Positions 13,807 to 61,526 are shown, counted from the whole stretch's first letter. The stretch: DNA of 63,922 nt, filler included, from an uncultured bacterium (GCA_964448115.1; 4 parts of 4 records of this genome joined end to end with filler, not necessarily neighbours in it); one strand, 5' to 3'. Translations and numbers: made by a program. Notes: generated by a model from the sequence alone, not told the origin.

Positions 13807-15522
13807 TCATTTTACATTGAGATAGGGCCACCTGGGGCTTCTTTGAGCAACATTATCAAGTGCGATTATGCTTAGCAGCAGAACTTGCTTATTTATCGGC
13901 GCTGAAAGCTCCGCGGCAGGGAATACGAAGACCCAATTCTGCGCATCAGCCAGGCTCAGATCTACGCCCAAATAAGAATCCCCTAAATATAGCATCGCCC
14001 GCGAGATGCCGACTTGATTTATGTCATCCACCATGGCTAGCATCTCGAAGATGCCTCCACTAGTTGAGCCAAGGCGGGATGACATGTAACCAGCAAGCAT
14101 AACTCTCGGCTGTTGAATCGGCGTCTCGGTGGGCGTAGGAGTAATGGTCGGTGTCTGGGTCGGAATAGGGGTAATTGTCGGCGTGGCGGTGAGAATCCCA
14201 GTGTTGAACTCGTAAGCTCCGATATCAAAACCATGCCCCTGCGGGCGTGATAAGCCATCATAATCCTCGCCTGGCGCTCCCTGCGAGGTGGCGGCATCTA
14301 CTGCTATACTGGTCTCGAAAAGGTGAAAGTCCTGCATGGCTAGGTTGAGATACAATTCTCCAGCCGGATCCCTTGTGATCAATGAATTCACATCCTGCCC
14401 GGAATCCGCGCTCCATTTACCGTTTTCGATATCGTCCAGGGAATACTCCGGGTCGAAGCCCCAGCTTATCGCCCTTGAAGCGTTTTCATTATGAAAAACA
14501 TTGTAATCGCCGACATACAATCCAGAATCCGGCGCGTTGCCCAGCGGGCTATAGTAGCATAGACCGATATTAGCTCCATTGCTCAAGATGCAGTTGTACA
14601 TGCGCAGGTTCTGAGCGCTCTCCACCAGTATGTTATAGCTATTACCACCAACAAATGTACAGTTGACGAGTTCAGTAGTGGTGGTTATGCCCATATAGTC
14701 GAGTTCTACATTGGAGTTCTCGCTTCCATATCCAATGCAATTCTCCAGTCGAATATTATTGCCCCAAAGTTTGAATCCGCTGTTGCGGCAGCTATGGGCA
14801 AGGCATCTTCTCAGGGTAGTATAATCAGCCTTCACATCGAAGCCATCATAAACATTATAAGAAACGCAGCGCTCGATGATAAAATGATCTCCGTCTCCAA
14901 AGGCGAATCCATCCACATTTTGTCCCACCTGTCCATTGTAAGCCTGGCAGCCGATGATGCGCCCGTCATAACAGACATCTCCTCCCTCGGATGAGGCATC
15001 GATGCCATAGCCTGCGAAGTTATACAAGGTGCAGTCCCTTATCGTGAAATCATGGGCACCATTATTGCACGATATGCCATAAGGGGAGTCATGCACCAGG
15101 CAGCGCTCTATGATGAAGCCCTCGATACTTGGGCAATCAATGCCAAGCGAGCTCCAGTTCCTGACCTCGAAGCCAATGAACTGGTAATAGGAGTCGAGGA
15201 TAACGCCGGTGCTGTTTAATCCATCAGATTCTATGACCGGTCTTGAGTCGCCATAGGCAATGAATGAGATAGGCGCGCCTGATGCTCCTGGCGTGGTCAT
15301 ATTCACGCTTTCTTCATATATCCCAGCCTTGACATAGACCACATCGCCGGGGATCACGATGCTAGCAGCATGAGATATGGTCTTGAAGGGAAGCTCCTCA
15401 GTACCAGGGTTACCATCATCAGCAGCCGGATCATTTGTGGCAACATAATAGGTGGCAGCAAAGCCGGGGCTAATCAAGAAGGTAACCAGAAGAATGATAA
15501 GTGGTCTGTGTATGTATCTCAT
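13807..15522 (-). CDS. Secreted right-handed beta-helix (pectin-lyase-like) protein with Thr/Pro linker and conserved C-terminal domain
   Basis: Signal peptide; ATYYVA...GNPGTEELPFKTI (DUF1565-like start); parallel beta-helix repeats; DIGAYE; TPT linker; PRVMLAGY...WPYLNVK. Confidence 0.8.
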   Translation of the reverse strand: MRYIHRPLIILLVTFLISPGFAATYYVATNDPAADDGNPGTEELPFKTISHAASIVIPGDVVYVKAGIYEESVNMTTPGASGAPISFIAYGDSRPVIESDGLNSTGVILDSYYQFIGFEVRNWSSLGIDCPSIEGFIIERCLVHDSPYGISCNNGAHDFTIRDCTLYNFAGYGIDASSEGGDVCYDGRIIGCQAYNGQVGQNVDGFAFGDGDHFIIERCVSYNVYDGFDVKADYTTLRRCLAHSCRNSGFKLWGNNIRLENCIGYGSENSNVELDYMGITTTTELVNCTFVGGNSYNILVESAQNLRMYNCILSNGANIGLCYYSPLGNAPDSGLYVGDYNVFHNENASRAISWGFDPEYSLDDIENGKWSADSGQDVNSLITRDPAGELYLNLAMQDFHLFETSIAVDAATSQGAPGEDYDGLSRPQGHGFDIGAYEFNTGILTATPTITPIPTQTPTITPTPTETPIQQPRVMLAGYMSSRLGSTSGGIFEMLAMVDDINQVGISRAMLYLGDSYLGVDLSLADAQNWVFVFPAAELSAPINKQVLLLSIIALDNVAQRSPRWPYLNVK

Positions 15523-15773
15523 ATTCTAAATTATTTACCAGCGGGTTCCAATGAGCCTATGTTCTTTTCAGCACTTATTATATGTTTGTGCGCGAAACTT
15601 ACAAGTGAAGTTATCATAAAAGCGATATTAGGTTCACATTTATAGATGAATTCAAATACATTAAACTTTTAATATTATTAAATAGTATATAGATTACTGA
15701 TATTTTAATTCAGTTAATTATAGCTATTATAAGATATAATATTATTTTTATGTAGATAATCGATTTTAAAAAA

Positions 15774-15789
15774 TGTTCCACATGGAACA
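15774..15789. promoter_or_regulatory. parS-like palindrome
   Basis: TGTTCCACATGGAACA, one mismatch from the parS variant TGTTCCACGTGGAACA; the inverted repeat extends to AAATGTTCCA-CA-TGGAACATTT in an AT-rich intergenic region. Confidence 0.65.
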
Positions 15790-16002
15790 TTTCACGCAGT
15801 TAAGGGATCGGCGATTTTTGGGTCTGGCTTAATTTGTATATTGGGATGCGCCTTTGTATATTGGAGCTAAGCCTTGGAATGCCGCCGGCTTGCAGGCAAC
15901 TTAATACTATCTGCCTTGCGTCCTTGCCAGGAGCATATAATGGTAAAAGGAATTTACTATTCTGGGAACAAAATGACCTTCTCAGCTATTATAATTCAAG
16001 GA

Positions 16003-16506
16003 ATGAAAAGACTGAATATAAAAAAGACAGCCTTTCAAGCCATATTCATCTTATGCTTTACCGTGATTCTTAGTTTAGGCTATAACACCCTATCCAAGTC
16101 AGGCATCCCACTGGTGAAGAAAAGAATAGTAAAAGATCCTCTCAACAATAGGCAAACAGAGGTAACCAACAACCACAGCATAACCTTGGCGGAAGCAAAG
16201 CAAGCCTTTGATACGCAGGGAGCCATATTCCTCGATGCTCGACCGCATGAAGAGTATCTGGGTGGACACATTCAGGGTGCCTTATCATTGCCGGAGGAGG
16301 AATTCGAGGCATATTTCCCAGCAGTACAAGACTTTTTTTCGATGGAGACAAATATCATAACTTATTGCAGCGGAAGCGATTGTCTATCCAGCGTACATCT
16401 TGCCGAGATGCTTATCGATATGGGTTACAAGAATGTCGATGTATTCTTCGGTGGATGGCAAAAGTGGCTCGAGGCTGGATATCCAACATCCAAGGGACAA
16501 TTATGA
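16003..16506 (+). CDS. Membrane-anchored rhodanese-like domain protein
   Basis: N-terminal TM, FLDARP..EY..GHIQGA, YCSGSDC active-site loop, GGWQKW. Start codon uncertain (15940, 15973 or 16003). Confidence 0.85.
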   Translation: MKRLNIKKTAFQAIFILCFTVILSLGYNTLSKSGIPLVKKRIVKDPLNNRQTEVTNNHSITLAEAKQAFDTQGAIFLDARPHEEYLGGHIQGALSLPEEEFEAYFPAVQDFFSMETNIITYCSGSDCLSSVHLAEMLIDMGYKNVDVFFGGWQKWLEAGYPTSKGQL

Positions 16507-17155: not shown

Positions 17156-18595
17156 GTGATGGCAATGCCTGGCAATAGATGGTTGCTTATATGTATAGTG
17201 TTGATATCTTGCGGTTGTTGTTGGGCGGCTACCGATCCTGGTACGCAGGGACCTTTTTTTGATGTTAGCTATGTGGATGTGCAGGTCGGTTCAGGTCTTA
17301 ACCGCATGAATGTGCGCATCTACTATCCAGGCAACGGTGAAACAGTTGAGCCATCCGGCGCACCATACCCGGTGGTTGTTTACTCACACGGCTATCAACT
17401 TGATGCCGACACATTGTTTCAGCATGGCGAGCATCTTGCTGGCTGGGGCTACATTTGCATGGTGGTCAATACGCCCTGGTGGACTACCAGCCATGAGCGT
17501 ATAGCCAACCAGATCAGCATTAACCTTGATTATATTATTGCTCGTAACTCGGATCATCGCAGCCGATTTCATAACATGATAGATACTGGTAAACTGGCAG
17601 CCAGCGGTCATAGCGCAGGGGGCAAATGCAGCATACTCGCTGCCTTCAATGATAATCGCATAAAGGCGTGTGCCACCTTGGACCCGGTCGATGATGGACC
17701 GTTCCAGGTCTCGGTAGCCCCAGAGTTGATTAGCCAGATGCATATCCCCATGCTCTTCATGGGGACCGATATTGCGGATACCTCGTGTAATCCGACCGAG
17801 AGCAACTACGAGCGCTTTTACGAGTCTGCCAATGCCCCCAAGGAGAAGGTGGTGGTGATCGGCGGTGATCACTGCCATTTCTGCGATTATGTGCATGCAC
17901 TATGTATTTGTCCAGAGGGGGAGGACTGGTCTCAGCAGCACTACTTGGCGCGTAAATATGTTACAGCATGGTATAACTACTTCCTGAAGGGGAACCAAGA
18001 ATACTATACTTATCTATTCGGCTTTGAGGCTAATCAAGATGTCTTGAGAGGTTGGACAACTTATGAATACATGCTTTACACGCCAACTCCCACCATAAGT
18101 GCTACCCCCACCAGCACCCCGGTTTTTCTAACACCAACTCCCACAGCCACAGTGCCTTCGCCCACTTTATCCTCCACGCCGACAAGTACGCCAACGCAGA
18201 TAACTCCCACCGACTCGCCCACTCCAACCAGGACAATGACTCTTTCTCCTTCACCAACGGCAACGGCAACAAGAGTGCCCGGCGCAATGATTTCTCTAGC
18301 CGGTTACTTTGATACCAGGCTCACTTCACAAGCCGGCGGAACACTGAATATCATAGCCCTGGTTACTGATAGAGCCTTTGACACGGTTAGTATTTTTATC
18401 GACAATAGTCCAAGCGGGATCTTTCTGTACGATACGGGAGAAAGCGGCGACTTCGAGCCAGGAGACTTGATTTATGGCTTAATCATGCAGCTTGCCCCTG
18501 GGGCGATTAAAGGCAGATATCTATTGGAAATAAGGGCTAATGACCCGGTGAATGTTCGATACCAGACCTTTCCTGCCCTGGTGGTTCGGGAATGA
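17156..18595 (+). CDS. Secreted alpha/beta hydrolase (chlorophyllase/cutinase-like) with Thr/Pro linker and conserved C-terminal domain
   Basis: Signal peptide; HG oxyanion motif; GHSAGG nucleophile elbow; LDPVD; GGDHCHF; TPT linker; AMISLAGY...FPALVVRE. Confidence 0.82.
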   Translation: MMAMPGNRWLLICIVLISCGCCWAATDPGTQGPFFDVSYVDVQVGSGLNRMNVRIYYPGNGETVEPSGAPYPVVVYSHGYQLDADTLFQHGEHLAGWGYICMVVNTPWWTTSHERIANQISINLDYIIARNSDHRSRFHNMIDTGKLAASGHSAGGKCSILAAFNDNRIKACATLDPVDDGPFQVSVAPELISQMHIPMLFMGTDIADTSCNPTESNYERFYESANAPKEKVVVIGGDHCHFCDYVHALCICPEGEDWSQQHYLARKYVTAWYNYFLKGNQEYYTYLFGFEANQDVLRGWTTYEYMLYTPTPTISATPTSTPVFLTPTPTATVPSPTLSSTPTSTPTQITPTDSPTPTRTMTLSPSPTATATRVPGAMISLAGYFDTRLTSQAGGTLNIIALVTDRAFDTVSIFIDNSPSGIFLYDTGESGDFEPGDLIYGLIMQLAPGAIKGRYLLEIRANDPVNVRYQTFPALVVRE

Positions 18596-20546: not shown

Positions 20547-22500
20547 GTGATTAGACAATGTTCGCTAATGGTTTTTATACTCTTTATACTTGTTATTCAT
20601 TGCAGTCATATCCGGGCTGCAACCATAACCGTGGGGCATGGTGGCGGTTATGACTACTCTAGCATTACAGATGCGCTTGATGCAGCTAGCTTCGGGGATA
20701 CAATACTGGTTGCCGATGGCAATTACACGATTAGCACTGGCGAGACTTTCCCGCTCAATATGAAAGAAGGTGTAGTGCTCAAGCGGGAAAACGATGGCAT
20801 CCTTCCTAGGATCGGCGCCTGGGGTTCAGGCAAGCGCGTCTTTCTTTGTGAGATGCTCTCTGTCGGCTCTGGTAGCAAAGTCGAGGGCTTTTATGTCACC
20901 GGCGGAGATGCTAGCGATGTTTCTGATAACTACCAGGGGGGTGGAGGTTTTTATATTTACTACTCCGAGCTGACCATCCAAGGTTGCGTAATCACCGGCA
21001 ATAAGGGGCGCTGGGGTGGAGGTATCAAGTTCGAGTCCAGCCCATCCAGCTTCATCATCGACTCGACCATCAGCGGCAATAAGGCGACCGATTACTACGG
21101 CGGAGCCATGCACATAAGCGGCTCATCACCTATCATCTCCAACTGCAATATGAACCGCAATATAGCCAAAGTCAGCGGCGCAATCCACTGCGTCAACAAC
21201 TGTTATCCCATCCTGCTCGACTGCAACATAACCCACAACTCAGGAGGGCAGGCAGCCGGCGGAATAAAGTTCTTCCTTCACTCCAGCGGCTATATGAGCA
21301 ACTGTAACATCAGTTGGAACAACTCTGATGGCGGTGGTGGGATCCTGATCGATAACGCCAAGCCGGAGATCGATAACTGTACAATTATAGGCAACAACGC
21401 TAAGGATGGCGGAGGGATCTATTTTTACAATACGACCTCAACCCTGGTGAGAAATTGTCTAATAGCAGATAATCAGGCAACAGTCTATTACGGCGGCGGG
21501 GTTTACAGTCGCTCCTCATCCCCGATCTTGTCCAACTGTACTATTACCGGTAACCAGGGTGATTATGGCGCCGGGATATCCTGTTATGGTGATCGTAATA
21601 TGACCGCGATAAACTGCGTTATCAATGATAATGTCGGGATCTATGGCGGAGGTATATTCTGCATGTCCTCCCCACCGGAGATAATAAATTGTGTGATAAC
21701 CAATAATACAGCCAGCTACGGGGGAGCGCTCTACTTGACAAGCAGTTCCGCACCTACGCTTACCAACTCGATTCTATGGAACAACTCCCCACAAGAGATC
21801 TATGTGGCCTCTGGAAGCCCCACTGTTACCTATTGCGATGTCGAGGGCGGATATGCAGGGACCGGGAATATGGACGAAAATCCATTGTTTGTAAGCTCGA
21901 ACGAAGATTTCCACCTGACCGGCAGCTCCCCTTGCATAGATGTCGGCACCGATGCTGGAGTCTATTATGATTTCGATAACGAGCCGCGCCCGGACTCGGT
22001 AAGCGGGTTGCAGGATATCGGTGCAGATGAGTATTATGGAGTCCCTGAAGCGACCATAACACCCTCACAAACTCCAACTCTAACCCCTACCCGAACACCG
22101 ACGGTAACAAAGACAGCAACCCCGACTTCAGAAATCACCGGGACTCCAACAATCACCCCCACTGCAACCCAAACCATTACCCCTACTATTACCGCGACCA
22201 GCACATTGATCCCCACCGCAACAGCCACCGCGACCCAGACATCGCTGCCCACATCAACGCCAACGATGACAACAACCACAACCGCAACCGACCTGCCTAG
22301 TAAAACCCCGACACCTACCCCGACAAGCACTACGACTGCGTTTTTAACCTCAACCCCGACCAGTACGGCGACTCAGACCCCTACCAGCTATCCAACCAAC
22401 ACGCCGACTATCACCGTGCATCCCAGTCTTACGCCTAGTTTCACACAAACCCCTACTTCCACACCGGTAGCTAAACCTGTCATCTTGATAGGCGGATATA
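20547..22500 (+). CDS. Secreted parallel beta-helix repeat protein with long Thr/Pro linker; C-terminal domain cut by the contig end
   Basis: Signal peptide, DYSSITDAL, many N...GGGI repeats, DIGADE, ~150-aa T/P/S tract, then KPVILIGGY before the Ns. Confidence 0.8.
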
Positions 22501-30695: not shown

Positions 30696-33128
30696 TCAAT
30701 ATATCGCCAGATATGGCCAGGGGATGCTGCTATGTTCATCGTAATCGACCGCTATTAGGCTGAAGAGATGATAATCCGGCTCAAGCCCTGGCTCTACCTT
30801 GAGCTTAATGCTCCAGATGCCGTCATTAGGGTACTCATCGCCAAAGCCACCGCCATCGGACAGGTATATGCCAGTAGGTAAGCCAAGGTAGTATAGTTGC
30901 ACCTGGCGGATATTTCCGGCGCCCTGGGGATCGCGGACATGAGCCTTGATGAACAGGTCCCCGCCAGTCTTGGAGTTTATCAGGGATGTGCTGAAACCTG
31001 CCTGGGTAATCACGGGTGCATCTGGATGGGGGGCATCAACCTGGGGCAGCTCATCGACTGCCTCCGGAAAGGTAGATTGCGGAGGATCTGCCAGGTACAG
31101 GTAGCTGATATCAGGATAGATTCTAAGGTATGGCCAGGGATCGCTACTGGCTCCGCTGTTATCCACTGCCACAAGCTGAAGCAGATGAGTGCCTTTTTCT
31201 ATCGGTTCTTTTATGCGGATCTCCAATGTGAAGATACCGTCATCCTCGGTTGCATCGCCGTTTGTTCCATCATCCCTCAGGTACAATCCGGTCTTTTGTC
31301 CCTGGTAGTAAAGCATTACCTGGTTGATATCTGCATAGCCATCGTAATCCCAGGCTCTCGCTACCATGCGAAACAAGCCACCATTCTGGTCGAGATAGGT
31401 ATCATCATACCCGGCTGAGAGGATCATCGGTGGCGCATTACTCCTCTGGGTCCGTATCAGCACCGCTGGCTTAAGTGTCCATAATTGGAGCACGCTGTCG
31501 AAAAGCGGATAGGGTTCACTCGGCTCAAAGAGAGCATAGAGTATCGGCTGCCCCACCGGGCACGCATAAATAGGCATACAGGCAACCGAATGCGATATGC
31601 CAAGAAAGTATATGTACATGTACTGTTGAGCCATTAAGTATAGAAACTCGGCTGGATTAAGGGTCGCGGTCGCACATTCGATGACTCCAGGCACGATGGT
31701 CAGGTTTTCGTTAAAGATATCTCTGACAGTTGATAATAGCGCGCTTCCAGAAAAGGTCTCACAATGAGAAGATGGCAGACCCGGGTAGCCGGTCTCAATC
31801 GGTCCCAGCAGCGGTTTACAAAGCACTTCCGCTGGCAGATGATTGTACTGTGTGTAATATCTAAGCGACTCGCCGAGCAGCCAGAATGCCTCCGCTAAGG
31901 AAAAATATCGTTGCTTTCCGATGTCGACATAGGAGGGTGGGCGATAGGTGCCATAGCCATAAGCTGGATTCATATAGGATGCCTGCAAGCTGAGATAAGC
32001 AGCAATGCGAACAACCTGATCCTGTGATATCACCTGGTTGCGCGTATCCTTTACGATGGTATAAAGATCCTTAGCGGTTACGAGGCGACAGTTGCGGTTG
32101 CCTGCCAGAAAGTTGTTTATCAAATCCACCAGGCTTGACCGATATCCCTCGATGTATTGCAGCATATCCCGTTTTGTTTTCACAAAAGGATGTTCAAGAT
32201 GCGTATAGTTGATATCCGGCGGTCTGCATCCCCACTGATGATTGTTATAAGACCAATCCCAGGGGTCGATATTAAGATATATGTTGTGGTCTATGACCCG
32301 GTGATTGACCAGGTGGCCGACATCCCGATCCAGAGCTTCAATTACTCCTATGCAGGAATGCTTTGCATCCGGGTAAAAATGAAGCAGATCCATGTACCAA
32401 AAAAGCCCCGATGAGCCGGTGAGCATGGCAAAGAAACTGAATATATCCTCCTTGGCATACCTGGCAAAGTAACCCTGGTTATGTCCGAATTCCACGGCAT
32501 CTGGATCGACCGTGGGCAGGGATCTTATTCCCAGCCCGGCAAAGGCAGCCTCTATGGAGCAGGATCTGACCGAGGTTATCTCTTTCCCGAAAAGATCTCC
32601 CAATAGGACAGCCCCGCCATACCGCGAGTAGTCTGAATGTCCGCTTAAGGGGTCAATATGGTGGCTGTAGCGCTCCTGCACTCTTTGATATGCTTGATCA
32701 TACTGGAGTCCCAGGGTAACCGTGCCGCACTCTTTTGCAGATGTACTGTAATAATCGGCGATGACCGGGTATGGTCCATGGCTTGCTTCGCCGAGGTAGC
32801 CAAGCCTTATGTTATCAGTATAGTTTAGATCCCACCTTCCCCATCCCTCGATGATGCTGTTCTGCAGCGCTTCTGCCCAAAGCCCGTCTGAGAAGAACTG
32901 CCCTTTAATACCTGTTTGATCCCATATCTCAAGCACTGCCTGTGAGGCTGCCAGGCTGTAGTCGAACATCAGGTGATGATTGAACTCACCGCTGATCCAA
33001 ATATATACCGGTTGGCTACCTGGGGCGGCTAAGCCGCTGGAGATGATAAGAAATGTTGCTAGACAAACCGATGCACTCCATAATCCAATTGGCGCAAGAA
33101 GGGATCGCCTACCGGGTCCTTTACCCAT
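30696..33128 (-). CDS. Secreted protein of unknown function with two tandem copies of the conserved C-terminal domain
   Basis: Signal peptide; PPMILSAGY...LRDDGTNGDATEDDGIF...WPYLRIY and PVITQAGF...LSDGGGFGDEYPNDGIW...WPYLAIY. Confidence 0.75.
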   Translation of the reverse strand: MGKGPGRRSLLAPIGLWSASVCLATFLIISSGLAAPGSQPVYIWISGEFNHHLMFDYSLAASQAVLEIWDQTGIKGQFFSDGLWAEALQNSIIEGWGRWDLNYTDNIRLGYLGEASHGPYPVIADYYSTSAKECGTVTLGLQYDQAYQRVQERYSHHIDPLSGHSDYSRYGGAVLLGDLFGKEITSVRSCSIEAAFAGLGIRSLPTVDPDAVEFGHNQGYFARYAKEDIFSFFAMLTGSSGLFWYMDLLHFYPDAKHSCIGVIEALDRDVGHLVNHRVIDHNIYLNIDPWDWSYNNHQWGCRPPDINYTHLEHPFVKTKRDMLQYIEGYRSSLVDLINNFLAGNRNCRLVTAKDLYTIVKDTRNQVISQDQVVRIAAYLSLQASYMNPAYGYGTYRPPSYVDIGKQRYFSLAEAFWLLGESLRYYTQYNHLPAEVLCKPLLGPIETGYPGLPSSHCETFSGSALLSTVRDIFNENLTIVPGVIECATATLNPAEFLYLMAQQYMYIYFLGISHSVACMPIYACPVGQPILYALFEPSEPYPLFDSVLQLWTLKPAVLIRTQRSNAPPMILSAGYDDTYLDQNGGLFRMVARAWDYDGYADINQVMLYYQGQKTGLYLRDDGTNGDATEDDGIFTLEIRIKEPIEKGTHLLQLVAVDNSGASSDPWPYLRIYPDISYLYLADPPQSTFPEAVDELPQVDAPHPDAPVITQAGFSTSLINSKTGGDLFIKAHVRDPQGAGNIRQVQLYYLGLPTGIYLSDGGGFGDEYPNDGIWSIKLKVEPGLEPDYHLFSLIAVDYDEHSSIPWPYLAIY

Positions 33129-33134: not shown

Positions 33135-36100
33135 CTAAGGCTCGATGATTAAGGCAGGCCAGGTGCCCTCGTTGTAGTTCTTGTCCATGGCAACGATGTC
33201 GATGAGGTAAAGCCCCGCACCTATCGGGCCTGAAAGATTTAAGGTCAAGCCAAAAGCTCCATCATAGGCATCTCCGTCAGCATGACTCCCATCATCGTGC
33301 ATGTACAGCCCAAGATCGACCCCCCCGGCATATAAGCTGACCTTGTAGATGTTATTGTAGCCCTGGGGATCGGAAACATAAGCAACAATGCTCAGATCCC
33401 CGCCACTTTCGGCATCGATGTAGGTATCAAACCATCCTGCCCACCATATCTGCGGGCTTTGGGAGTCCTTGCTGCCTTTTTTAGTCGGCGCTGTTGCCTT
33501 GCGCATCAAGGTTTCAAGGCTCATCTGCGCCTGCTCATGCAAGAGCAGTAGCTCCTTTGCCAACATCTCTCGCTCAATGGGCGCCCCGGTGGAGTAAGTT
33601 TCAGAAGCTATGACATTAAGATAGGGGAATACAAAGCTCTGGTTACCCTCGGTATCGGTGGCTACATACTCCAAGAGATATGTTCCCGCTGGGATGCCGG
33701 AGTCAGGTGGTATGGGTAAATCAGGGAATCCGTAGAGCGCGCCATTGGGATCGCCATAGAGGGGATCGATAACCTGTAGGGTCGCGCCGGTGGGCGAAAG
33801 GTTCATCAGGATCTCCACCCGGCTAATGGTCTCGGCTCCCTGGGGATCGCTCACATAAAGCCAGGGACCAAAGACTCCGCCTTGTGCTGCGCTAATCTGT
33901 TTGCCCATGTAGCCACCTGCCCAGATCACCGGCTTCACCGGCTGCGGGGTAACCTTTTCCCATGAGCTGGAGGTGCTAATATTGCCGACATCGTCGAATG
34001 CCTTTACGAAGAAGGTATATTCCTTATAGTTCTCCAATCCTGTTTTTGTATAGCTTGTTGTGTTGCGATCCAGCTCTACCCACCAGTTGAAGTCGCTCTC
34101 GCTCTGTGGGTTCTGTATCCCGGTGCCATACAATTTATACCCGGCGAGATCCGGCTCGCTGTTTGCCTTCCACGAGAGAATAGCCTTTCTATCTCCTGGG
34201 TCGGCTTTGAAGTTTGCCGGATATCTGGGCGCGGTTACATCGATAGGTGTGAATGTCCACGAGTAATCGTCTTCGGGGGAGCCACCGACCCTGCCATCGC
34301 CATTGCCGTCAAGCCCGTTGCCAGCCTGGTCCAGCACCCCGGAGTCTCCGCCAGTTATAGTAACCCGCACCTGGATATTCTTTTCCATGCGCGTCTCCGG
34401 GATGAAGTAGATGCGAATCCGATCCTGTGATAAAAAGTAAGCGCCGTTTATGGTTCTAGTCTCCCCTTGAATGACGCTCAGCGTATTTGCATTCAAGGTC
34501 GCCTCGTCCATTGGCTCGCTGAAGGTTGCCTGGATGGACTTGTCAACATCTATCTTGAAGGTTCCATTATTGGATGGAAATATGCTGGAGACGACCGGGG
34601 GCGTGAAATCACGGGATGAAAGCCAGACATCGATTCCCTCAGCTCCGCTGACTCCATGCGCAGCAGCGATATCCGGCAAGCCATCATGGGTGAAATCGGT
34701 GGTGAATACGGAATGGTAATCACCAGTGCCAACCGGCGAGATCAAGCCGCCCCAGTTGGTTAAGCCTTCTGCGGTTAGCGTTCCCTTGAAGACCTTAACA
34801 CCGCCTCCGTTATCAGCCACCACCATATCTGGCACTCCATCGTTGTTGAAATCGGCAATATCCACGCCGCGACTCTGTCCGGATGCGATATATTGTCCGG
34901 GCATCTCGCAGCCACCATCCTGGTGGGCATAGCTAGTGCCGGTCATATACATGGTGTAAATAAAGTGCCCGTTTTCACCGCAGGCAATATCCGGTTTGCC
35001 ATCAAGATTGAAGTCGGCTGCCTTTACTCCATAGATATTATTATACCCTTCAGAGCCGAATATATAATTGATATACCGTCCGGGAGCCTGGCTGACATTA
35101 TAATTCAGATGTTGTGCATCTCCAGTAACCTGTCCCCACCAGATATGCAAGCCGGTGCCGGTATGTCCTCCTACTATCAGGTCCAAAGCGCCATCAAGGT
35201 TTATATCAACCGCGTCAAGACCCCATGAGGGTATAGCCTCTATGGAGCTAGGACCGATGTTATCACCCCAGGTACCGCTACCCTCGTTCAACCACAGGTG
35301 CACACCCAAGACTTCCTCGCTAGCAGCTATATCGATCAAGCCATCCCTGTTGAAATCCCTGGCGATGACAGTCCTGAAGGAGCCTTCGTTTATCGGGTTC
35401 TGCCAGTTCGTATAGCTGCCGTCGGTGTTGTTTTTGAATACATGAACCCCGCTATTTTTATGTCCAGCAATGATATCTTCCCAGCCATCGTTATTTATAT
35501 CAGCAGCGACTACTGAATAGTATTCCTGGTAGCTGCTTGCTGAATAGTAATTCTGCCAATCTCCGCTTCCGTTTCCAGTCCATATCTGTATCCCGGGAGC
35601 ATTGGACTTGAACTGGGCACCGATGACATCCTTATCCCCATCATGGTTCTGATCCGAAGCGGTAACCCCGAAGTAGTCTCCCGTGCCCACCGGCTTTGAT
35701 ATCCAAGATGTAAATGGATACCTGTCGTTGCCGTCTCCAACCCAGACCTGTATTCCGCCACCGTTCTTGGCTCCTACAACATCAGGATTTCCGTCCCGGT
35801 TAAGATCAATATTTGCGCTGACGCCCAGGTAGTTTCCCTCGGCTACCGGGCTTGTTTCCTCCACCCAGCCGAAGACCCCGTTACCGGTCCAGACCCTTAT
35901 GCCGATATTCTGGGAGGCAGCAAACAGATCCGGCTTGCCATCATTGTTGATATCAGAGACCATTATATCCTGGAAGATCTCGGCAGATAGTGGACCTTTT
36001 GCAGTGGTGAAGTTGAAATGATCTCCTGGCTGGAAGGGATCATCCTGCTCCCCGCGGGCGATGATGAAGCCGACCTCGTTGCCATCTGAGTGATAGTACT

Positions 36101-38216
36101 CGTTCACCTTGACCAGGTTACCCTGTTTTCCGCTCACCGTCCCCACCGCCTCGAAGATCGCATAGGTGCTAGAGGTTCCGCCTTGAATGCAGGTAACCTC
36201 CCAGTCCTCAACCTTAGTATTTTGATTGTTCACCTCCACGGTTGACATGCTGCCATGTCCCTGGTTTCCGCTATAGGCTTGGGGCACCGAGGCACTTGCT
36301 ATCTGGTACCACTGAATGTCATCCTTTTCCTCGCTAAGTTGTCCATACCAGATGTAGATGCCTCCAGTGGTCTTTGTTACTGCGATATCAAGCACCCCAT
36401 CCAGGTTGAAGTCATCAATGGCAAGCCCGGTAAAGGTCCCGCTGTCGGTGGGACCCATATCGCCGTACCATCCGAAAACGCCGTTGCCTAGAAAGACTTG
36501 TACCCCCTTGTTTTGACCGCAGGCAACCAGGTCGAGACGCCCATCGAAGTTGAGGTCTTTAAGCATAATATTCAGATATTTTCCAGAGCTTGCCGAGGAA
36601 GGCGGAGTCTGAGATTGTACCTGGATTACATCACCCTGGGGACCTCTGTTCTTTAGGATGGATAAACCGCCGGAGTCCTTTGCACTGACTATATCTATCC
36701 ATCCGTCCTTATTGATGTCGCCCACATCGATGCGATTATGCCATCCGGAGGCTATCTTCAATTCAGGAGAGAAGTTGTAATGCTTTGTGGAGAAGATGAA
36801 TTTGCTTCCCTTGCAGTAATACTGGAATTGAGGCTCCCTTTTTTGTTCATCCATTCCAAGGAAGTTATCCTCGGCGAGCTGGTTATCCTGGCTCGAATAG
36901 GGATCGACCCGGAAGGTAAATTCTCCTCGATTCGAGATGTATTCGACAGATTTTATCCCCCCGCCAACGGGATCATAGCAGTTTACGCTACGGATATGGG
37001 TGCCAGATTCTTGACCGCTTGGACTCCAATACCAGTCAGCATCTCCAGCTTTCACAAGCTCCACGAAGACCGGTTCATGCTTAGAGGTCGTCCAATGTAT
37101 ATCAGGATATCCAGTGATGCCCATGGTCATTACCGGATATTCGCCCCGGAAACAATCGCCAGGGATGAAAGCCTTATTACTTGCATAAAAGGTAGGTGTT
37201 GTGTAATCGCCCTCTACTCGACACCAGACCCGAAGCCCATATTTACCGGCGCCTATTATATCCAGCGAGCCATCCTTGTTCAGATCAGCAACCTTCACAT
37301 CATAATAGATATCCGTTGTTTGGGGCCCCTCTGGGGTATGGAATTTATAAGAATCGCCGACTTGTACTGCTGCATTTTTATACACCGGGATGAATGATAG
37401 TATATTTGTCCATTCACCCTTCTTGCCATAAAAAGCTTCCCACATCCTAGGACCCATGCCTGTTGTCGCATTCACCAAAGTACCGCTTTTACTGCCAGTA
37501 CAGGTAAATCGTGCCAACTGGATCCTAAAGACTATGTAATCCCCTTGATTGTATGAATTTGCAGCCGAGGAGAGCTTGAAATAGAATTTGCCATTGGCAG
37601 CATCATAGTATGCTCCCGCTCCGGTATAATCATCCATTCTACCGCCAACATTAGACTCCACTATCCATGTATTGCTGGAGGATTTGGTGAGCTTGATTAT
37701 CTCGTCTTGGCTAGTACAGTTCTTTTCAAAAGCGCCGTAATCCTGCATTACGCCAGTGATGTCATGTGGTGCGCCATCGGCATAGAAATATCCGATGTCA
37801 GTGATTTGAGTGGGTGAGACGCAGGTAACCGTCCATTCCTCTATCTCGTAGTTATAGCCGCTTCTCGGATAGGTCAATTCTCCACGATAGGTGCCAAAGA
37901 TGTTATAAGGCTTGGAGGCGCTGTCTCCAGTCGTTGCGCCAGGTTGGGTGATGCTCCATACCCATTTGCCACCGCTGTAATAGACCTCACCGAACCAGAT
38001 AGGCAAACCGCTATAGGCGGAAGCCTCCGCATCCGGGTTACCATTGGCAGCTATGAGATCAGGGATGCCATCCTTATTGAGATCAGCAACGCAAACCCTA
38101 TTAAACACTCCTACAGCAACAGGGGAGATCTGGCTCGTCCAGTTGATCTCACCCCAAGCGTATAAGGAACAAAGCAATAGTATGGCTATCGTAACCTTGA
38201 TTGCATAAGGCTTCAT
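33135..38216 (-). CDS. Large secreted FG-GAP/VCBS repeat protein with Ig-like (SbsA/Big_5) and FN3 domains and two copies of the C-terminal domain
   Basis: Many DxNxDGxxD repeats; FSEPMD..TL...LDQAGNGLDG; LSWKANSEPDLAGYKLY; KPVIWAGGY...FPYLNV; SPQIWWAGW...WPALIIEP. Confidence 0.85.
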   Translation of the reverse strand: MKPYAIKVTIAILLLCSLYAWGEINWTSQISPVAVGVFNRVCVADLNKDGIPDLIAANGNPDAEASAYSGLPIWFGEVYYSGGKWVWSITQPGATTGDSASKPYNIFGTYRGELTYPRSGYNYEIEEWTVTCVSPTQITDIGYFYADGAPHDITGVMQDYGAFEKNCTSQDEIIKLTKSSSNTWIVESNVGGRMDDYTGAGAYYDAANGKFYFKLSSAANSYNQGDYIVFRIQLARFTCTGSKSGTLVNATTGMGPRMWEAFYGKKGEWTNILSFIPVYKNAAVQVGDSYKFHTPEGPQTTDIYYDVKVADLNKDGSLDIIGAGKYGLRVWCRVEGDYTTPTFYASNKAFIPGDCFRGEYPVMTMGITGYPDIHWTTSKHEPVFVELVKAGDADWYWSPSGQESGTHIRSVNCYDPVGGGIKSVEYISNRGEFTFRVDPYSSQDNQLAEDNFLGMDEQKREPQFQYYCKGSKFIFSTKHYNFSPELKIASGWHNRIDVGDINKDGWIDIVSAKDSGGLSILKNRGPQGDVIQVQSQTPPSSASSGKYLNIMLKDLNFDGRLDLVACGQNKGVQVFLGNGVFGWYGDMGPTDSGTFTGLAIDDFNLDGVLDIAVTKTTGGIYIWYGQLSEEKDDIQWYQIASASVPQAYSGNQGHGSMSTVEVNNQNTKVEDWEVTCIQGGTSSTYAIFEAVGTVSGKQGNLVKVNEYYHSDGNEVGFIIARGEQDDPFQPGDHFNFTTAKGPLSAEIFQDIMVSDINNDGKPDLFAASQNIGIRVWTGNGVFGWVEETSPVAEGNYLGVSANIDLNRDGNPDVVGAKNGGGIQVWVGDGNDRYPFTSWISKPVGTGDYFGVTASDQNHDGDKDVIGAQFKSNAPGIQIWTGNGSGDWQNYYSASSYQEYYSVVAADINNDGWEDIIAGHKNSGVHVFKNNTDGSYTNWQNPINEGSFRTVIARDFNRDGLIDIAASEEVLGVHLWLNEGSGTWGDNIGPSSIEAIPSWGLDAVDINLDGALDLIVGGHTGTGLHIWWGQVTGDAQHLNYNVSQAPGRYINYIFGSEGYNNIYGVKAADFNLDGKPDIACGENGHFIYTMYMTGTSYAHQDGGCEMPGQYIASGQSRGVDIADFNNDGVPDMVVADNGGGVKVFKGTLTAEGLTNWGGLISPVGTGDYHSVFTTDFTHDGLPDIAAAHGVSGAEGIDVWLSSRDFTPPVVSSIFPSNNGTFKIDVDKSIQATFSEPMDEATLNANTLSVIQGETRTINGAYFLSQDRIRIYFIPETRMEKNIQVRVTITGGDSGVLDQAGNGLDGNGDGRVGGSPEDDYSWTFTPIDVTAPRYPANFKADPGDRKAILSWKANSEPDLAGYKLYGTGIQNPQSESDFNWWVELDRNTTSYTKTGLENYKEYTFFVKAFDDVGNISTSSSWEKVTPQPVKPVIWAGGYMGKQISAAQGGVFGPWLYVSDPQGAETISRVEILMNLSPTGATLQVIDPLYGDPNGALYGFPDLPIPPDSGIPAGTYLLEYVATDTEGNQSFVFPYLNVIASETYSTGAPIEREMLAKELLLLHEQAQMSLETLMRKATAPTKKGSKDSQSPQIWWAGWFDTYIDAESGGDLSIVAYVSDPQGYNNIYKVSLYAGGVDLGLYMHDDGSHADGDAYDGAFGLTLNLSGPIGAGLYLIDIVAMDKNYNEGTWPALIIEP

Positions 38217-52589: not shown

Positions 52590-52590
52590 T

Positions 52591-54943: not shown

Positions 54944-57900
54944 ATGAGACGGTTTCTCCACATTCTAACCTTATGGTTGGTCTGCGCAACGGCTTTACTA
55001 GCATATTGCTCCAATAGCGATGGCGAAAAGCTGCTGATCAGGCTGTATTTCGATGATTACAAGCAAGAGGCTCCGCTGGTTGCTGCTGAGGGTTTCGATA
55101 TCGCCGGCGTCAATCTAAGGCAACAGACGATGGATATTGTCATATACAGCGATGAGCTTTTTCGTCTCCAACTAATGGGCATAAAATACGAGCTTATCTA
55201 CACCGAGAAGGAAATAACCGTAGATCCTGACTTCAAGACCCCGGCAGAGGTTGCACAGATACTAAGTGACTACGAGGCTGATTATCCAGATATAGCAAAG
55301 GTCTATTCCATAGGAACCACTCTGGAGGGGAGAAATATCTGGGCGATGAAGATCTCCGATAATGTGGATCAGGATGAGGACGAGTTTGCGATCAACTTTA
55401 ACGGTTGTCATCATGCCAGGGAGGATATGTCAATCGAGGTGCCGCTCGATATCATCGAGTATCTCCTGACCGGATACGGCAGCGATCCCCAGGCGACCAA
55501 GTGGGTGAACAAGTACGAGTTCTGGATAATCCCCATGGTCAATCCGGATGGTAACAATTATATGTGGACCTCGGATAGCATGTGGCGCAAGAACCGGCGA
55601 CCGGGCAGCACCTGTTATGGAGTGGACAACAATCGCAACTATCCCTACAATTGGGGCGGCTGTGGCGGTTCCAGCGGAAATGAATGTGCCGATGATTACC
55701 GGGGTCCATCTGCAGGTTCCGAGCTGGAAACTCAGGCGATGGTCGCGCTGGCAAACAATCAGCGCTTCGTAACATCTATTTCATACCACTCCTACAGCGA
55801 GCTTGTCCTTTACCCTTATAGCTGCTCTGGCGAGTACACCGCGGATCACGATGCCATAAGCCAGATCGGTATAACCATGGCAAACCTGATCCAAGGGGAC
55901 AGCGGGGGGCATTATACGCCGGGCACACCTTGGGAGATCCTATATGCGGTCGATGGTGGCGATATCGACTGGTATTACAATGAGCTTGGGGATTTCCCGT
56001 TTGTGGTTGAGCTAAATTCCAGTTCCCAGGGATTTCACCCAGATTACTCCTGGCGGGATCCGACCTGCCAGCGCAATCGACCAGGCTGGCAGTACCTAAT
56101 AAATCGACTAGAAGGACCTGGTATCTACGGTCATGTACGCAACGCCTGTACCGGCGAGCCTCTGGAGGCGACTATTTCGATCAGCGAGATCGACTTTTCC
56201 TACAACGAGAAGCCGCGGCGCAGCCATCCGCAGCACGGAAGCTACCTCTGGATGCTGCTGCCCGGCACCTATCATGTAAACTTCACCAAGGTCGGCTTCT
56301 CTCCCTTGACCCTTGAGGTTTCTGTTGGCAACGATGCCCTCGAGGTCGATGGAATGCTCACCCCGCTAGGCGCCAACGGATTAATGGTCTATTCGAGCAC
56401 GGTACTTGATGGCGAGGAAGGTGATGGGGACCAGACGGTTGATCCCGGCGAGTCCTTCAAGCTTAGGATCTCTGCCGTTGCCACCGGTGGCGATCTTACT
56501 GGTATCTCCGCCATTATCGATAGTGTTGACCCCTATCTAACTATAAATGATGATACTGCCTCGTTTCCTGATATACCCGGCGGTCAGTCGGCTGCCTCTA
56601 TTGAGCCGCACTTTGCAATGAGCGTCTCTGAGCAATGCCCGGAGGGACATTATGTGGATCTCAATATCACCTTTTATGCTGATCAGGATCTTTGTATCAA
56701 CAAGGATAAGCTGAGCCTTAAGGTGAGCGAATATGCATATAGCTGCCCCATATACGAGGAGACGCTGGATATCGATCCGGGGTGGAGCATATCAAATAGC
56801 GGCTCCGGCGGCTGGGAGTTTGGCATTCCGCAGGGCAAAGTATCCGGTCCTACTGGTGGAAACACCGGTTTTTATGTCTATGGCACCAATCTAAATGGTA
56901 ATTATGGAGATAATGTTAACCATAAACTGACCGCTGGTCCCTTTGATTGCAGCCTGATTCAGGACACCGAGTTGATATTCTACCGCTGGCTGGGCAACGA
57001 GAACGGCTACGATACCGCTTATGTCGAGGTCAGCCCTGATGGGTTCAACTGGACCGTGGTCTGGGGCGGATACGCGCAGGATACGAGTTGGAAGCGTATG
57101 CAGTATGATATATCACCGGTCGCAGACGGCGTTTCCACTGTCTTCGTGCGCTTCAGGCTCACCTCAGATACCAGCGTTACCGACTGCGGATTCTATGTGG
57201 ATGATCTATCCATTTGCGGCAACACGGTGAGCATCCCCAATTTCCGCCTTGACTCGATCACCTACGATGACCGAGCCGGCGCCTGTTTTGATGGCGATGG
57301 ATACCTCGACCTCGGCGAGGAGGCTGACTTGAATGTAACCATCAAGAACATCGGTAACACCAAGGCGACCGGGACCATCGTGCGCATCTATCCATCAAGC
57401 GAGCACATCTTCATACCATCGAATGAGTACCCGCTGGGCGAGATCGCATCTTATGGGGGAAGCGGCACGGCGAAATACCGACTCATCGCCCTTGATGATA
57501 CTGAGTGCATGGAGACGGTGGATCTCAACATCGTGATAACCTCCTCGGAGACGAGCAGCTCTGCTGTTTATTCAATGATGGTAGATCTCGACATAGAGGA
57601 GGATACAGGCGACCATTCCAATGGCTTCGAGGTGGAGCCACAGGATTGGCTTACCAGCGGATGGGAGCATAGCAGCGAAGAGAATCATACTCCAATGGGC
57701 ACCAAGAGCATGCATACGATCTATGTTCGCAACGCCTGCTCGCGGCTTACCTCGCCGGCTTTCAGATTATCGCCCACCGGCAGCTCGAAGCTTAGGTTCT
57801 GGAGCAAGTATGATATTGAAAATAAATACGATGGCGGTATCGTACAGGTTTTGGTTGAAGGCTCGAATAGTTGGCAGACGCTTAGTCTTACCCCCAGCTA

Positions 57901-58675
57901 TCCTGGCAGCACCAACAGCACGACATCCTCCTGCATCGGACAAAACCAGCCGTGCTTCACCGGCACCGACAATACCTGGACCGAGTATGTGGCTGATCTT
58001 GGCTCCTATCAGGGCGAAACGGTGCGTATAGGCTTTTTATTCGGCTCCGACAGCGCGGTTGAGGAGACCGGCTGGTACATAGATGATGTAACCATCTCGG
58101 ATGTGATCACCGAGACGACTATCTGCGATCAATATCCCTGTGGCGGTGCGACCTTGACGCCGACAGCAACTCCCACAGAGACCGGCATCATCACCCCGAC
58201 TCCGACGGCGACTCCCACAAATACTGTTACCATGAGCATTACCCCCACGGCGACCGCTACCTACAGCAGCACGGTTACAGTTACGGCTACTCCGAGCGTT
58301 ACTGCAAGCGCGACCCCGACCCCCAGCGCCACGGCTACCCAACCCGAAATTGATGCCTATATCAGCGTCGGTGGCTACATGGCCACGCGGTTGGAGAGCC
58401 GAGCCGGCGGGCAACTGGTGCTTATGACAATGATCAGCGGGGCAGATGCATCATCGGTTGAGTTGGTTGAATTGTACTACCAGGGAATGCCTACTGGAGT
58501 CCTTTTGGGGCATGATTGTGCTCCCTATGTCTTCGAGGATGAGAATATCTATTGTCTTAGCCTTTATATCGAGCCGGGGACTGCGCCAGCCCTGAAGGCT
58601 TTGTTGGAGGTAATTCCCCATCTGTCGCAAGGCATGGATGGCACCGGCTGGCCTAATCTTGTTTCCAGCAAATAA
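54944..58675 (+). CDS. Secreted M14 zinc carboxypeptidase (carboxypeptidase T-like) with accessory beta-sandwich domains, Thr/Pro linker and conserved C-terminal domain
   Basis: HHARE, NPDG, WRKN, GVDNNRNY, SYHSYS; jelly-roll-like domains (GFYVDD, GWYIDD); AYISVGGY...WPNLVSSK. Confidence 0.9.
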   Translation: MRRFLHILTLWLVCATALLAYCSNSDGEKLLIRLYFDDYKQEAPLVAAEGFDIAGVNLRQQTMDIVIYSDELFRLQLMGIKYELIYTEKEITVDPDFKTPAEVAQILSDYEADYPDIAKVYSIGTTLEGRNIWAMKISDNVDQDEDEFAINFNGCHHAREDMSIEVPLDIIEYLLTGYGSDPQATKWVNKYEFWIIPMVNPDGNNYMWTSDSMWRKNRRPGSTCYGVDNNRNYPYNWGGCGGSSGNECADDYRGPSAGSELETQAMVALANNQRFVTSISYHSYSELVLYPYSCSGEYTADHDAISQIGITMANLIQGDSGGHYTPGTPWEILYAVDGGDIDWYYNELGDFPFVVELNSSSQGFHPDYSWRDPTCQRNRPGWQYLINRLEGPGIYGHVRNACTGEPLEATISISEIDFSYNEKPRRSHPQHGSYLWMLLPGTYHVNFTKVGFSPLTLEVSVGNDALEVDGMLTPLGANGLMVYSSTVLDGEEGDGDQTVDPGESFKLRISAVATGGDLTGISAIIDSVDPYLTINDDTASFPDIPGGQSAASIEPHFAMSVSEQCPEGHYVDLNITFYADQDLCINKDKLSLKVSEYAYSCPIYEETLDIDPGWSISNSGSGGWEFGIPQGKVSGPTGGNTGFYVYGTNLNGNYGDNVNHKLTAGPFDCSLIQDTELIFYRWLGNENGYDTAYVEVSPDGFNWTVVWGGYAQDTSWKRMQYDISPVADGVSTVFVRFRLTSDTSVTDCGFYVDDLSICGNTVSIPNFRLDSITYDDRAGACFDGDGYLDLGEEADLNVTIKNIGNTKATGTIVRIYPSSEHIFIPSNEYPLGEIASYGGSGTAKYRLIALDDTECMETVDLNIVITSSETSSSAVYSMMVDLDIEEDTGDHSNGFEVEPQDWLTSGWEHSSEENHTPMGTKSMHTIYVRNACSRLTSPAFRLSPTGSSKLRFWSKYDIENKYDGGIVQVLVEGSNSWQTLSLTPSYPGSTNSTTSSCIGQNQPCFTGTDNTWTEYVADLGSYQGETVRIGFLFGSDSAVEETGWYIDDVTISDVITETTICDQYPCGGATLTPTATPTETGIITPTPTATPTNTVTMSITPTATATYSSTVTVTATPSVTASATPTPSATATQPEIDAYISVGGYMATRLESRAGGQLVLMTMISGADASSVELVELYYQGMPTGVLLGHDCAPYVFEDENIYCLSLYIEPGTAPALKALLEVIPHLSQGMDGTGWPNLVSSK

Positions 58676-60182: not shown

Positions 60183-60282
60183 NNNNNNNNNNNNNNNNNN
60201 NNNNNNNNNNNNNNNNNNNNNNNNNNTTAATTAATTAANNNNNNNNNNNNNNNNNNNNNNNNNNNNNNNNNNNNNNNNNNNN
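60183..60282. other. Artificial contig-joining spacer
   Basis: N44-TTAATTAATTAA-N44. Confidence 0.97.
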
Positions 60283-60283
60283 A

Positions 60284-60324
60284 GCCGGAGTTTACCCCGC
60301 ACTTGATGCGGAGCGGGAATGACA
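60284..60324. repeat. REP-like repeat copy
   Basis: 36/41 identical to 45492-45532. Confidence 0.7.
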
Positions 60325-60452
60325 TGGGGGTGCCCGTTGGCGAAACAAATCTTATGTCAAGAGCAGCCCCCATCCCGACCTATTCGGGAGGCATGAAAAT
60401 TATGACCTGCGAAATTGCGCTATCTTTCCAGGGAAGTAATTTAAAATTGCTC

Positions 60453-61526
60453 CTACTCCACTACCAGATACGGCCACGGGTGGCTTCGGTTGCCGAATAG
60501 GTCCTCGGATATGAGTTCTAAAAGAATGCGCTGCTTGTATAAGCCGCTTGGAACCTCTGCCTCCGGGAAGTAGTATAACTTTCTGTCCGCATCGAGTACG
60601 CTCAAATCAATGCCCAGGTAAATTTCGTTCTGGTACAGACTCACGCGCACCAGGGTAAAATCACCCATGGCAGCATAAGCGATCATGGTAAAGATGCCTC
60701 CGGACTCGGAATTGATCCGGGTATCATCGTATCCGGCAGCTAATATCTTGGGGAGACGAGGTGCGTAGGTTGCAGTCGGCGTAAATGTAGGCTCTGGTGT
60801 TGGCGTATTTGATGGTTCTTCAGTAGGAGTACTGGTTGGAGTACTAGTTAAGGATGGCACAATGGTCGATGTCGGTGTAGGGGGTGGTGTGTCGGTTGCT
60901 TCGGGAGTATCGGTTATAGTCGGCGTGTTCGTGGGAGTGGGAGTATAGGTCGGTGTATTCGTGATAGTCGGTGTCGAAGTGGGTAGTGAATCTCCAACCA
61001 CCGAGTTGATGAACATGTGCAGCGCCATTGGAGCGAAGCCGTAATTGGTGTAAAGGATCTCCCATTGCTGATAATTGGGGTCGTTGGCAGTTCCGTTGAT
61101 CACTACATTATGTGGTATGTATCCCTGGGAATATGCATTGAAAGCCACACGGCTGAAATCCTCAAGCACCGGAAAGGTTAGACCATGCTGGTTTATAAAG
61201 TTTATGGTCTGAGCGTGGTTTTCCAGGCTCATACCCATCACCATCACTGGCACGCCATTGCTATTACCGCCATTCTGCTGATAGTACTGCCAGAAATCTG
61301 TCTCCAAGTGTGGAGCCTCCACACCACAGGAACTTCACCAATAAGCAAAAAAATTAAGCAGGATTACATGACCGGAGAATTGATACAAGGAGTAACTCTC
61401 TCCCCAGGGATCGCTTAGCTGCCAGTTGGGTGCTATGTCCCCAGCCTGTAAGGTAGCATGAACCGAGCTGCCCCCAAATAGTATCAGAATGATGTTTGCT
61501 AGTACTATTACTTGTCTTGGGTGCAA
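60453..61526 (-). CDS. Secreted redoxin (AhpC/TSA/TlpA-like) selenoprotein, UxxC, with Thr/Pro linker and conserved C-terminal domain (357 aa)
   Basis: The two track ORFs are in one frame, separated by TGA at 61335-61337; read-through gives [24 protein letters not shown]-like hairpin follows; TTG start with AAGGGG SD. Confidence 0.87.
61308..61324 (-). promoter_or_regulatory. Bacterial SECIS-like hairpin
   Basis: GUGUGGA-GGC-UCCACAC: perfect 7-bp stem with a G-containing loop, beginning at the 11th nt after the UGA. Confidence 0.7.

Follow-up and report, generated by a model that had tools for sequence, protein, structure and literature searches.

A protein domain of about 105 residues recurs at the C-terminal ends of otherwise unrelated secreted proteins encoded by a 63,922-nucleotide stretch of DNA (hereafter, the window) from an uncultured bacterium (GCA_964448115.1). 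In the genome from which the window was taken (G000; 3.98 Mb in 86 contigs, 94% complete), the domain is present in 202 copies on 164 reading frames; these carriers make up ~5.6% of the genes and 12.3% of the coded residues, based on a greedy count of ~2885 genes. Sequence comparisons place it in a subfamily of the immunoglobulin (Ig)-like domain that bears the choice-of-anchor-X loop, and it likely serves to dock exported proteins, either with each other or at the cell envelope, in a manner unlike known sorting systems.

The window consists of four contigs (C58, C59, C63 and C82) joined by runs of N at positions 22501-22600, 45082-45181 and 60183-60282. Seven of the proteins it encodes (carriers A to G; Table 1) have eight complete copies of the domain, 100 to 109 residues in length, and one nine-residue stub. 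A first-pass annotation, made by a model, had described nine copies on proteins with unrelated passengers and had interpreted them as a candidate sorting or surface-anchoring system. The shared domain is confirmed, and exact boundaries are now assigned to the eight full copies and the stub. A Pfam scan agreed with the passenger families that had been named, namely two beta-helix proteins (Beta_helix in carriers A and C), a hydrolase, an M14 peptidase (Peptidase_M14 in carrier F), an FG-GAP protein, a redoxin whose AhpC/TSA match is weak (E 0.0036, carrier G) and one passenger with no family (carrier D). Translated sequences also bear out the Thr/Pro linker ahead of the domain in five of the seven carriers, and in none of the seven is the domain followed by a membrane helix or a basic tail. 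An N-terminal signal peptide, which had been assigned to every carrier, is evident in six; carrier G has one only if an in-frame TGA is read through from the TTG at 61526. In an alignment of the eight full copies (111 columns), the others show 23-41% identity to the first copy, and residues G8, GG19-20, G50, L85, P102 and L104 are invariant. A profile built from them recovers each copy in the source genome at E values of 1e-32 to 1e-38, far beyond chance.

Table 1. Domain carriers and other features discussed in the text. Positions refer to the window unless a genome and contig are given.
Feature	Location	Strand	Description
Carrier A	13807..15522	-	Signal peptide, right-handed beta-helix, Thr/Pro linker, terminal copy 13810-14109 (profile E 2e-33)
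Carrier B	17156..18595	+	Signal peptide, PETase-like alpha/beta hydrolase, Thr/Pro linker, terminal copy 18281-18592 (profile E 1e-32)
Carrier C	20547..22500	+	Truncated by contig end at 22500; signal peptide, beta-helix, long Thr/Pro linker
Carrier C stub	22473-22499	+	Initial nine residues of a copy, KPVILIGGY
Carrier D	30696..33128	-	Signal peptide, passenger without Pfam family, tandem unit
Carrier D tandem unit	31116-31433 and 30699-31019	-	First copy, 32-residue linker, terminal copy
Carrier E	33135..38216	-	Signal peptide, FG-GAP repeats, Big_5, fn3, tandem unit
Carrier E tandem unit	33609-33935 and 33138-33458	-	First copy, terminal copy
Carrier F	54944..58675	+	Signal peptide, M14 carboxypeptidase, MAM-like domains, Thr/Pro linker, terminal copy 58352-58672 (profile E 3e-35)
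Carrier G	60453..61526	-	Thioredoxin-like redoxin with in-frame TGA at 61335-61337, Thr/Pro linker, terminal copy 60456-60755
T2SSE-type ATPase	12715-13785	-	
GT-C glycosyltransferases	18592-20442 and 38409-41042	+	Both beside carriers
Tubulin-like protein	22601-24667	-	PF13809 Tubulin_2, E 3e-36
VWA-domain protein	24685-27234	-	849 residues, adjoining the tubulin-like protein
T2SSG-type pseudopilin	51657-52643	-	Third contig
Membrane-anchored carrier	G000:C1:74029-76482	-	814 residues; signal peptide, DMFA2_C-like domain, tandem copies, C-terminal membrane helix and basic tail
Choice-of-anchor-X protein / PorV-like locus	G060:C23:4404-4865 and G060:C23:6556-7197		

The first-pass annotation had also suggested a genome-wide profile count, a comparison with Pfam and NCBIfam, and structure prediction, each of which was performed. 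For the count, all stop-to-stop frames of the source genome were searched with a profile rebuilt from the first-round matches. The 202 copies found in this way are distributed over 128 frames with one copy, 35 with two and one with four, such that 36 of the 164 carriers (22%) have at least two. The tag-like behavior suggested by the window holds throughout the genome: the last copy ends within seven residues of the stop codon in 144 of the 164 carriers (within two residues in 138), and the passengers are very diverse. BLAST clustering of the passengers was uninformative, as it yielded one cluster of 92 via common repeats and linkers, and Pfam was used instead. The N terminus is hydrophobic in 148 of the 154 carriers that are not truncated at their 5' ends, versus 762 of 1645 other frames of at least 300 residues, according to a crude heuristic (a 12-residue window with a mean hydropathy of at least 1.8) whose background includes membrane proteins. 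The carriers are Sec-type exported proteins. Thr, Pro and Ser make up at least 50% of the 40 residues upstream of 88 of 199 copies, versus 16% in the proteome. The domain itself is strongly acidic, with a median isoelectric point of 4.16, a median net charge of -8 and a net negative charge in 98.5% of copies.

Frequent occurrence at non-terminal positions was among the findings that the first-pass annotation named as refuting its proposal, and this was in part borne out. More than seven residues follow the last copy in 20 of the 164 carriers (12%). In five of them, a copy lies directly behind the signal peptide and is followed by a Thr/Pro linker and then the passenger, and other non-terminal copies precede PKD-like or other modules. 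A further five terminate in a second short motif (described below), and one is the membrane-anchored carrier of Table 1. These 20 carriers argue against a strict C-terminal secretion signal.

Given an alignment of 48 copies from the source genome, AlphaFold2 predicts a seven-strand, all-beta structure for the terminal copy of carrier D with high confidence (predicted local distance difference test (pLDDT) of 95.1, predicted template-modeling score (pTM) of 0.86). A Foldseek search of the Protein Data Bank (PDB) with the single domain gave no match at E<=0.001. Its top rows, which include the Ig-like dimerization domain of sulfite oxidase (1sox) and SoxYZ (2oxg), have E values of ~0.01 and template-modeling (TM) scores of 0.43-0.49, with scores of up to 0.53 lower down. 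When the model was compared with 48,161 representatives by VIA-align, the best Z score was 7.6, with many ties, and the 417 chains with Z>=5 include fibronectin type III (FN3)-like modules of glycoside hydrolases, Ig receptors and titin. Similarly, a profile search of PDB sequences found no relative at E<=1. As modeled, the fold is a generic Ig/FN3-type sandwich without a specific solved relative.

The first-pass annotation considered the domain to be unrecognized. With regard to Pfam, no family matches convincingly: none covers the domain in a scan of the seven window carriers or in a scan of 63 library proteins (the first by id, with lengths of 400-1300 residues and a combined length of up to 50,000 residues, among the best 150 library hits described below). 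When the copies were scanned alone, the sole Pfam match at E<=10 was to DUF4625 (PF15418), with an E value of 0.039 in one of the eight. DUF4625 is also a language-model neighbor at 0.85, which is below the lead threshold. FlgD-Ig (PF13860) is not among the Pfam matches of the carriers or of the eight copies. The nearest clusters in the ESM Atlas (0.94) are without names and serve only as leads.

With regard to NCBIfam, however, the domain is not wholly unrecognized, as its central loop is matched by the 37-position model NF041940 (choice_anch_X). Within the window, only one copy, the first of carrier D, exceeds the cut-off of this model (30.9 versus 25 bits); the terminal copy of carrier E reaches 19.8 bits, and the other six give no match. 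Among the 48 aligned copies, it matches the central loop of 22 at E<=1. Across the source genome, it matches 74 places at E<=0.01, mostly over model positions 1-25 and with ~50 above the cut-off. Matches were present in 21 of 61 genomes sampled, usually in one to eight copies. Classical choice-of-anchor-X members match our full-length profile only over approximately positions 45-97. We also compared the 48-copy alignment by using hhalign with nine choice-of-anchor-X regions, each from a different other genome; these regions were picked through the NF041940 motif itself, and two of them also matched the domain profile more widely. The resulting probability is 97.5% (E 5e-12) over 76 columns (17-97 of 107). 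Because homology is detected over these columns, the domain is a subfamily of an Ig-like domain that bears the choice-of-anchor-X loop, with strands B-F homologous to those of the wider domain. The best-conserved parts of the domain, its first strand (PxIxxAGYxDT) and last strand (SxxWPYLxV), lie outside the hhalign match and are peculiar to the subfamily. Judged by titles and the first parts of abstracts, no paper on family X or on this domain was among the matches listed in a literature search on choice-of-anchor domains.

The proposal that the domain is lineage-specific did not hold. In a sample of 60 genomes of other phyla, the domain was matched 25 times in G022 (best E 6e-37) and 38 times in G041 (best E 4e-32); four weaker matches were found in G053, those in G036 and G060 are marginal, and the other 55 genomes have none. 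In all six distinct loci that were examined from G022, G041 and G053, the copy ends zero or one residue before the stop. The source genome is the sole genome of its phylum among 199,900 species genomes. The family is nonetheless very rare, as only 632 cluster representatives among 1.84 billion match the eight-copy profile at E<=0.001. Of the best 150 of these, 28 are from the source genome itself, and none of the remaining 122 exceeds 46% identity to any of its frames. The domain profile matched 149 of the best 150, and in 121 of these 149 the domain ends within seven residues of the C terminus. Two copies are present in 145 of the 149, a figure to be read with the fact that ranking by score favors two-copy proteins. 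Some library hits have PKD or other domains after the domain copy.

Tandem units were analyzed further because duplication bears on function. Only two of 197 copies have as their best match the sister copy on the same protein, and for 23 of 30 second copies the resemblance is to other second copies. On a FastTree phylogeny of the 197 copies, there are 15 changes between the labels "first" and "second", compared with a mean of 23.1 (range, 18-29) in 200 shuffles. Because sister copies are so rarely best matches and the labels change so few times, the tandem unit is old, rather than the product of recent duplication, and its halves are partly differentiated. Of the 32 tandem units listed, 29 have an intercopy linker of 22-52 residues; in the other three, it is 69, 70 and 2144 residues long. 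An alignment of 32 units (22 from the source genome and 10 library proteins) reveals a conserved Trp in this linker. In the same alignment, the acidic-loop residues D193, G195, D199 and D204 are at least 90% conserved in second copies, and many first copies have a shortened loop. When a cruder motif was counted over all copies, the acidic loop was detected in 21 of the 30 second copies, as against 14 of the 30 first copies.

For the tandem unit of carrier D, AlphaFold2 gives a model with a pLDDT of 91.0 (90.2-91.0 over five models) and a pTM of 0.88, with linker residues 110-135 poorly defined (scores of 53-60). Since this pTM is so high for two domains of ~105 residues, the two copies in tandem proteins are predicted to pack in a fixed mutual arrangement. 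No two-domain chain among solved structures matches the tandem model globally (TM<=0.28).

The tag-like distribution of the domain implies that its carriers share some step after Sec export, and the sorting or anchoring interpretation of the first-pass annotation is to this extent partly supported. Our preferred reading, which we offer tentatively, is that the tail is an acidic Ig-like offshoot of choice-of-anchor X that functions as a noncovalent docking module by pairing with its own copies. In tandem proteins, the two copies would pair in cis, and in the 128 single-copy carriers, copies may pair likewise in trans, between molecules. Such pairing could hold exported enzymes and adhesins together, or could hold them at the envelope of a cell that bears an outer membrane. 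The source organism is diderm, given that its genome encodes three full BamA paralogs; it also encodes six secretins. The acidic loop (DDGxxGDxxxGDGxY) might bind calcium. We favor docking or pairing over a cleaved export signal because the domain is frequently duplicated, occurs at N-terminal and internal positions, and is packed in the tandem model.

Several observations weigh against self-pairing. Pairing between separate molecules would be an extrapolation from a single-chain tandem model, and most carriers (128 of 164) have just one copy. Matches to the fold are generic, as is evident from the many ties at the best Z score. No conserved anchor bearing the domain was found: a membrane anchor was seen in just one carrier, the 814-residue tandem protein listed in Table 1, which we rejected as a general anchor because it has no ortholog in the domain-rich genomes G022 and G041. 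We also found no cognate machinery, and no paralog family of at least three members is enriched within 1.5 kb of carriers (best p 0.008, uncorrected). Finally, an envelope glycan ligand, or no docking role at all, would fit most of the same data.

The first of these alternatives is that the domain binds an envelope ligand, either a surface glycan (lipopolysaccharide, capsule or exopolysaccharide) or peptidoglycan, possibly via calcium, and would retain proteins in the manner of SLH, LysM and carbohydrate-binding modules (CBMs), with two copies raising avidity. The tag-like layout, the tolerance of either end and the occurrence of copies in multiples are as in known binding modules. The acidic, Asp/Gly-rich loop is reminiscent of calcium-binding loops, the conserved aromatics Y9, W101 and Y103 flank the sandwich, and both a CBM and the FN3-like and X modules of glycoside hydrolases are among the nearest folds. 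Moreover, the 22 GT-C glycosyltransferase paralogs described below point to elaborate glycan biology. However, CBM, SLH and LysM profiles are unmatched in the Pfam scans of carriers and copies, no ligand is known, and the loop is short or missing in many copies, including those of carriers A and G (48-copy alignment, 24 rows displayed). We consider a ligand-binding role conceivable, but doubtful.

Alternatively, the domain might play no part in sorting and serve as a sturdy and soluble Ig-like cap or spacer that spread, as PKD, FN3 and Big domains do, through domain shuffling in a lineage with many modular exported proteins. A generic Ig/FN3 fold would be expected of such a spacer, the parent choice-of-anchor-X domain is widespread in the sampled genomes and internal in other phyla, and PKD or other domains follow a copy in some carriers. 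Yet the extreme bias toward the last residues of the protein is conserved across phyla, the strands specific to the subfamily are those best conserved, and the domain is on more than one gene in 20. Because terminal bias, conservation of the end strands and abundance are all unexpected of a neutral spacer, this explanation is unlikely.

The final alternative is that the domain is a recognition and attachment tag for a hitherto undescribed export route across the outer membrane, being either an analog of the C-terminal domain (CTD) of the type IX secretion system (T9SS) or a tag read by a secretin-based system. Profiles for the CTD (TIGR04183, Por_Secre_tail), PorV (NF033710) and SprA (TIGR04189) have no matches in the source genome (PorU and GldKLMN were not searched), nor in G022, G041 and G053. 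The positive control G060, which is from the same sample, has 39 CTDs, a PorV-like protein (157.7 bits) and SprA (738.7 bits summed). TIGR04183 and PF18962 are not matched on the seven carriers or on their copies, an hhalign comparison of the domain with 15 CTDs of G060 returned a probability of 0.4%, and no T9SS CTD chain is among the structural matches listed, although one may be present further down. Given the 94% completeness of the source genome, the T9SS machinery is likely absent from it, and the domain is without detectable link to type IX secretion. Thus, although the domain has four hallmarks of T9SS CTDs (an Ig-like sandwich of ~100 residues, placement at the extreme C terminus, diverse cargo with signal peptides, and tens to hundreds of carriers), although large enzymes must cross the outer membrane to act on polymers, and although six secretins are encoded and terminal position is kept in other phyla, an export tag is distinctly improbable in view of the tandem copies, the N-terminal or internal copies (both unusual for a terminal export signal), the lack of profile similarity to CTDs, the negative searches for PorV, SprA and Por_Secre_tail in three genomes, and the failure to find a candidate translocon or neighboring partner gene. 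A stronger form of this idea, in which the AGY...WPYL domain is the cargo tag of an export-and-attachment system with some translocon or attachment enzyme, in effect a counterpart of T9SS that arose independently from a choice-of-anchor-X Ig domain, and is carried by approximately one gene in 18 and in at least three phyla without T9SS, is just as improbable.

Carrier G merits separate discussion. Its TGA occupies the first position of the redox motif W-[TGA]-S-S-C, a GC-rich hairpin lies ~13 bases 3' of this codon, the source genome encodes tRNA-SeC, and the TTG at 61526 begins a frame with a hydrophobic leader. Because of this combination, carrier G is probably an exported selenoprotein, which gene callers would likely truncate.

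Two of the genes beside carriers in the window encode GT-C glycosyltransferases. The source genome has 22 paralogs of this PMT_2 or TMEM260-like type, many with TPR tails. Counts of PF11028 are 17 in the source genome, seven in G022, four in G058, three each in G041 and G013, and zero to two in the other 56 sampled genomes. We rejected genomic linkage between these genes and carriers, since the typical distance is several kilobases, only three of the 22 are within 200 bases of a carrier, and three share no contig with one. Human TMEM260 is reported to O-mannosylate Ig-like IPT domains (PMC10214176; bioRxiv 10.64898/2026.09.21.753134). By analogy, glycosylation is worth considering, and either the Thr/Pro linkers or the Ig-like domains may be O-glycosylated by the GT-C enzymes.

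Other features were noted in passing. The T2SSE-type ATPase gene is directly downstream of carrier A, and a pseudopilin gene of T2SSG type is on the third contig. In G060, a 253-residue protein ends in a domain of choice-of-anchor-X type (profile positions 24-98), ~1.7 kb from the PorV-like barrel gene. A second C-terminal motif, PP..PSNPxPx[DN]GATxVxPN, ends six frames of the source genome (on contigs C1, C16, C25, C29, C53 and C61) directly before a true stop codon (TAG, TAA or TGA). These are all the occurrences of this terminal motif among open reading frames in all six frames, and an Ig-like domain is upstream in five of them. The motif resembles the first strand of a Big_5-type Ig domain standing on its own.

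Bacterial sorting tags such as LPXTG, PEP-CTERM, the T9SS CTD, dockerin and SLH have each opened the way to a dedicated machinery and to surface-display tools. Carriers of the unnamed domain described here account for ~5.6% of the genes and 12% of the coded residues in one genome; the domain recurs in two other phyla, and T9SS was seen in none of the three. If it pairs or docks, it would show how an uncultured lineage organizes a very large exoproteome that comprises peptidases, beta-helix enzymes, propellers and FG-GAP proteins, and protein assembly would gain a small and acidic module that folds well. There is also a consequence for annotation. The NCBIfam model for choice-of-anchor X captures no more than the central part of a larger domain, and as a result approximately one copy in four is named by annotation pipelines, which miss the tag-like subfamily.

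Among solved structures, the CbhA X1 modules (3pdd and 3pe9), 1sox and 2oxg are among the best structural neighbors of the domain, with VIA-align Z scores of 6.9-7.1. However, the scores of such FN3-like or X modules and Ig-like dimerization domains tie with those of hundreds of unrelated Ig/FN3 domains. A different type of comparison is provided by dockerin-cohesin and SLH display, which have the same layout of passenger, Thr/Pro linker and small terminal module, in which multiple copies occur and either end is tolerated. Dockerin and SLH modules are helical, whereas the domain here is modeled as all-beta, and neither dockerin (PF00404) nor SLH (PF00395) has a Pfam match on the eight copies at E<=10. 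We did not identify a cohesin-like scaffold or a pathway for a pyruvylated polymer, although no search was aimed at either. The carriers also have no LPXTG or PEP-CTERM signal, as they end in the beta-strand WPYLxV plus zero to two residues; sortase and exosortase genes were not searched.

With T9SS CTDs, the domain shares the four hallmarks listed above, its passengers being likewise unrelated to one another. It differs in that tandem and N-terminal copies occur, and in the lack of sequence or profile similarity. A further comparison is with choice-of-anchor X itself, whose model NF041940 spans only one loop and one strand and matches the central loop, DDGxxGDxxAGDGxY, in 22 of the 48 aligned copies. 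We take the name "choice-of-anchor" to denote a domain that precedes one of several C-terminal sorting signals. In other phyla, members of family X number one to eight per genome and lie inside long frames, whereas the domain described here is mostly terminal. In 144 of the 164 carriers nothing follows it, and the domain takes the place of the anchor.

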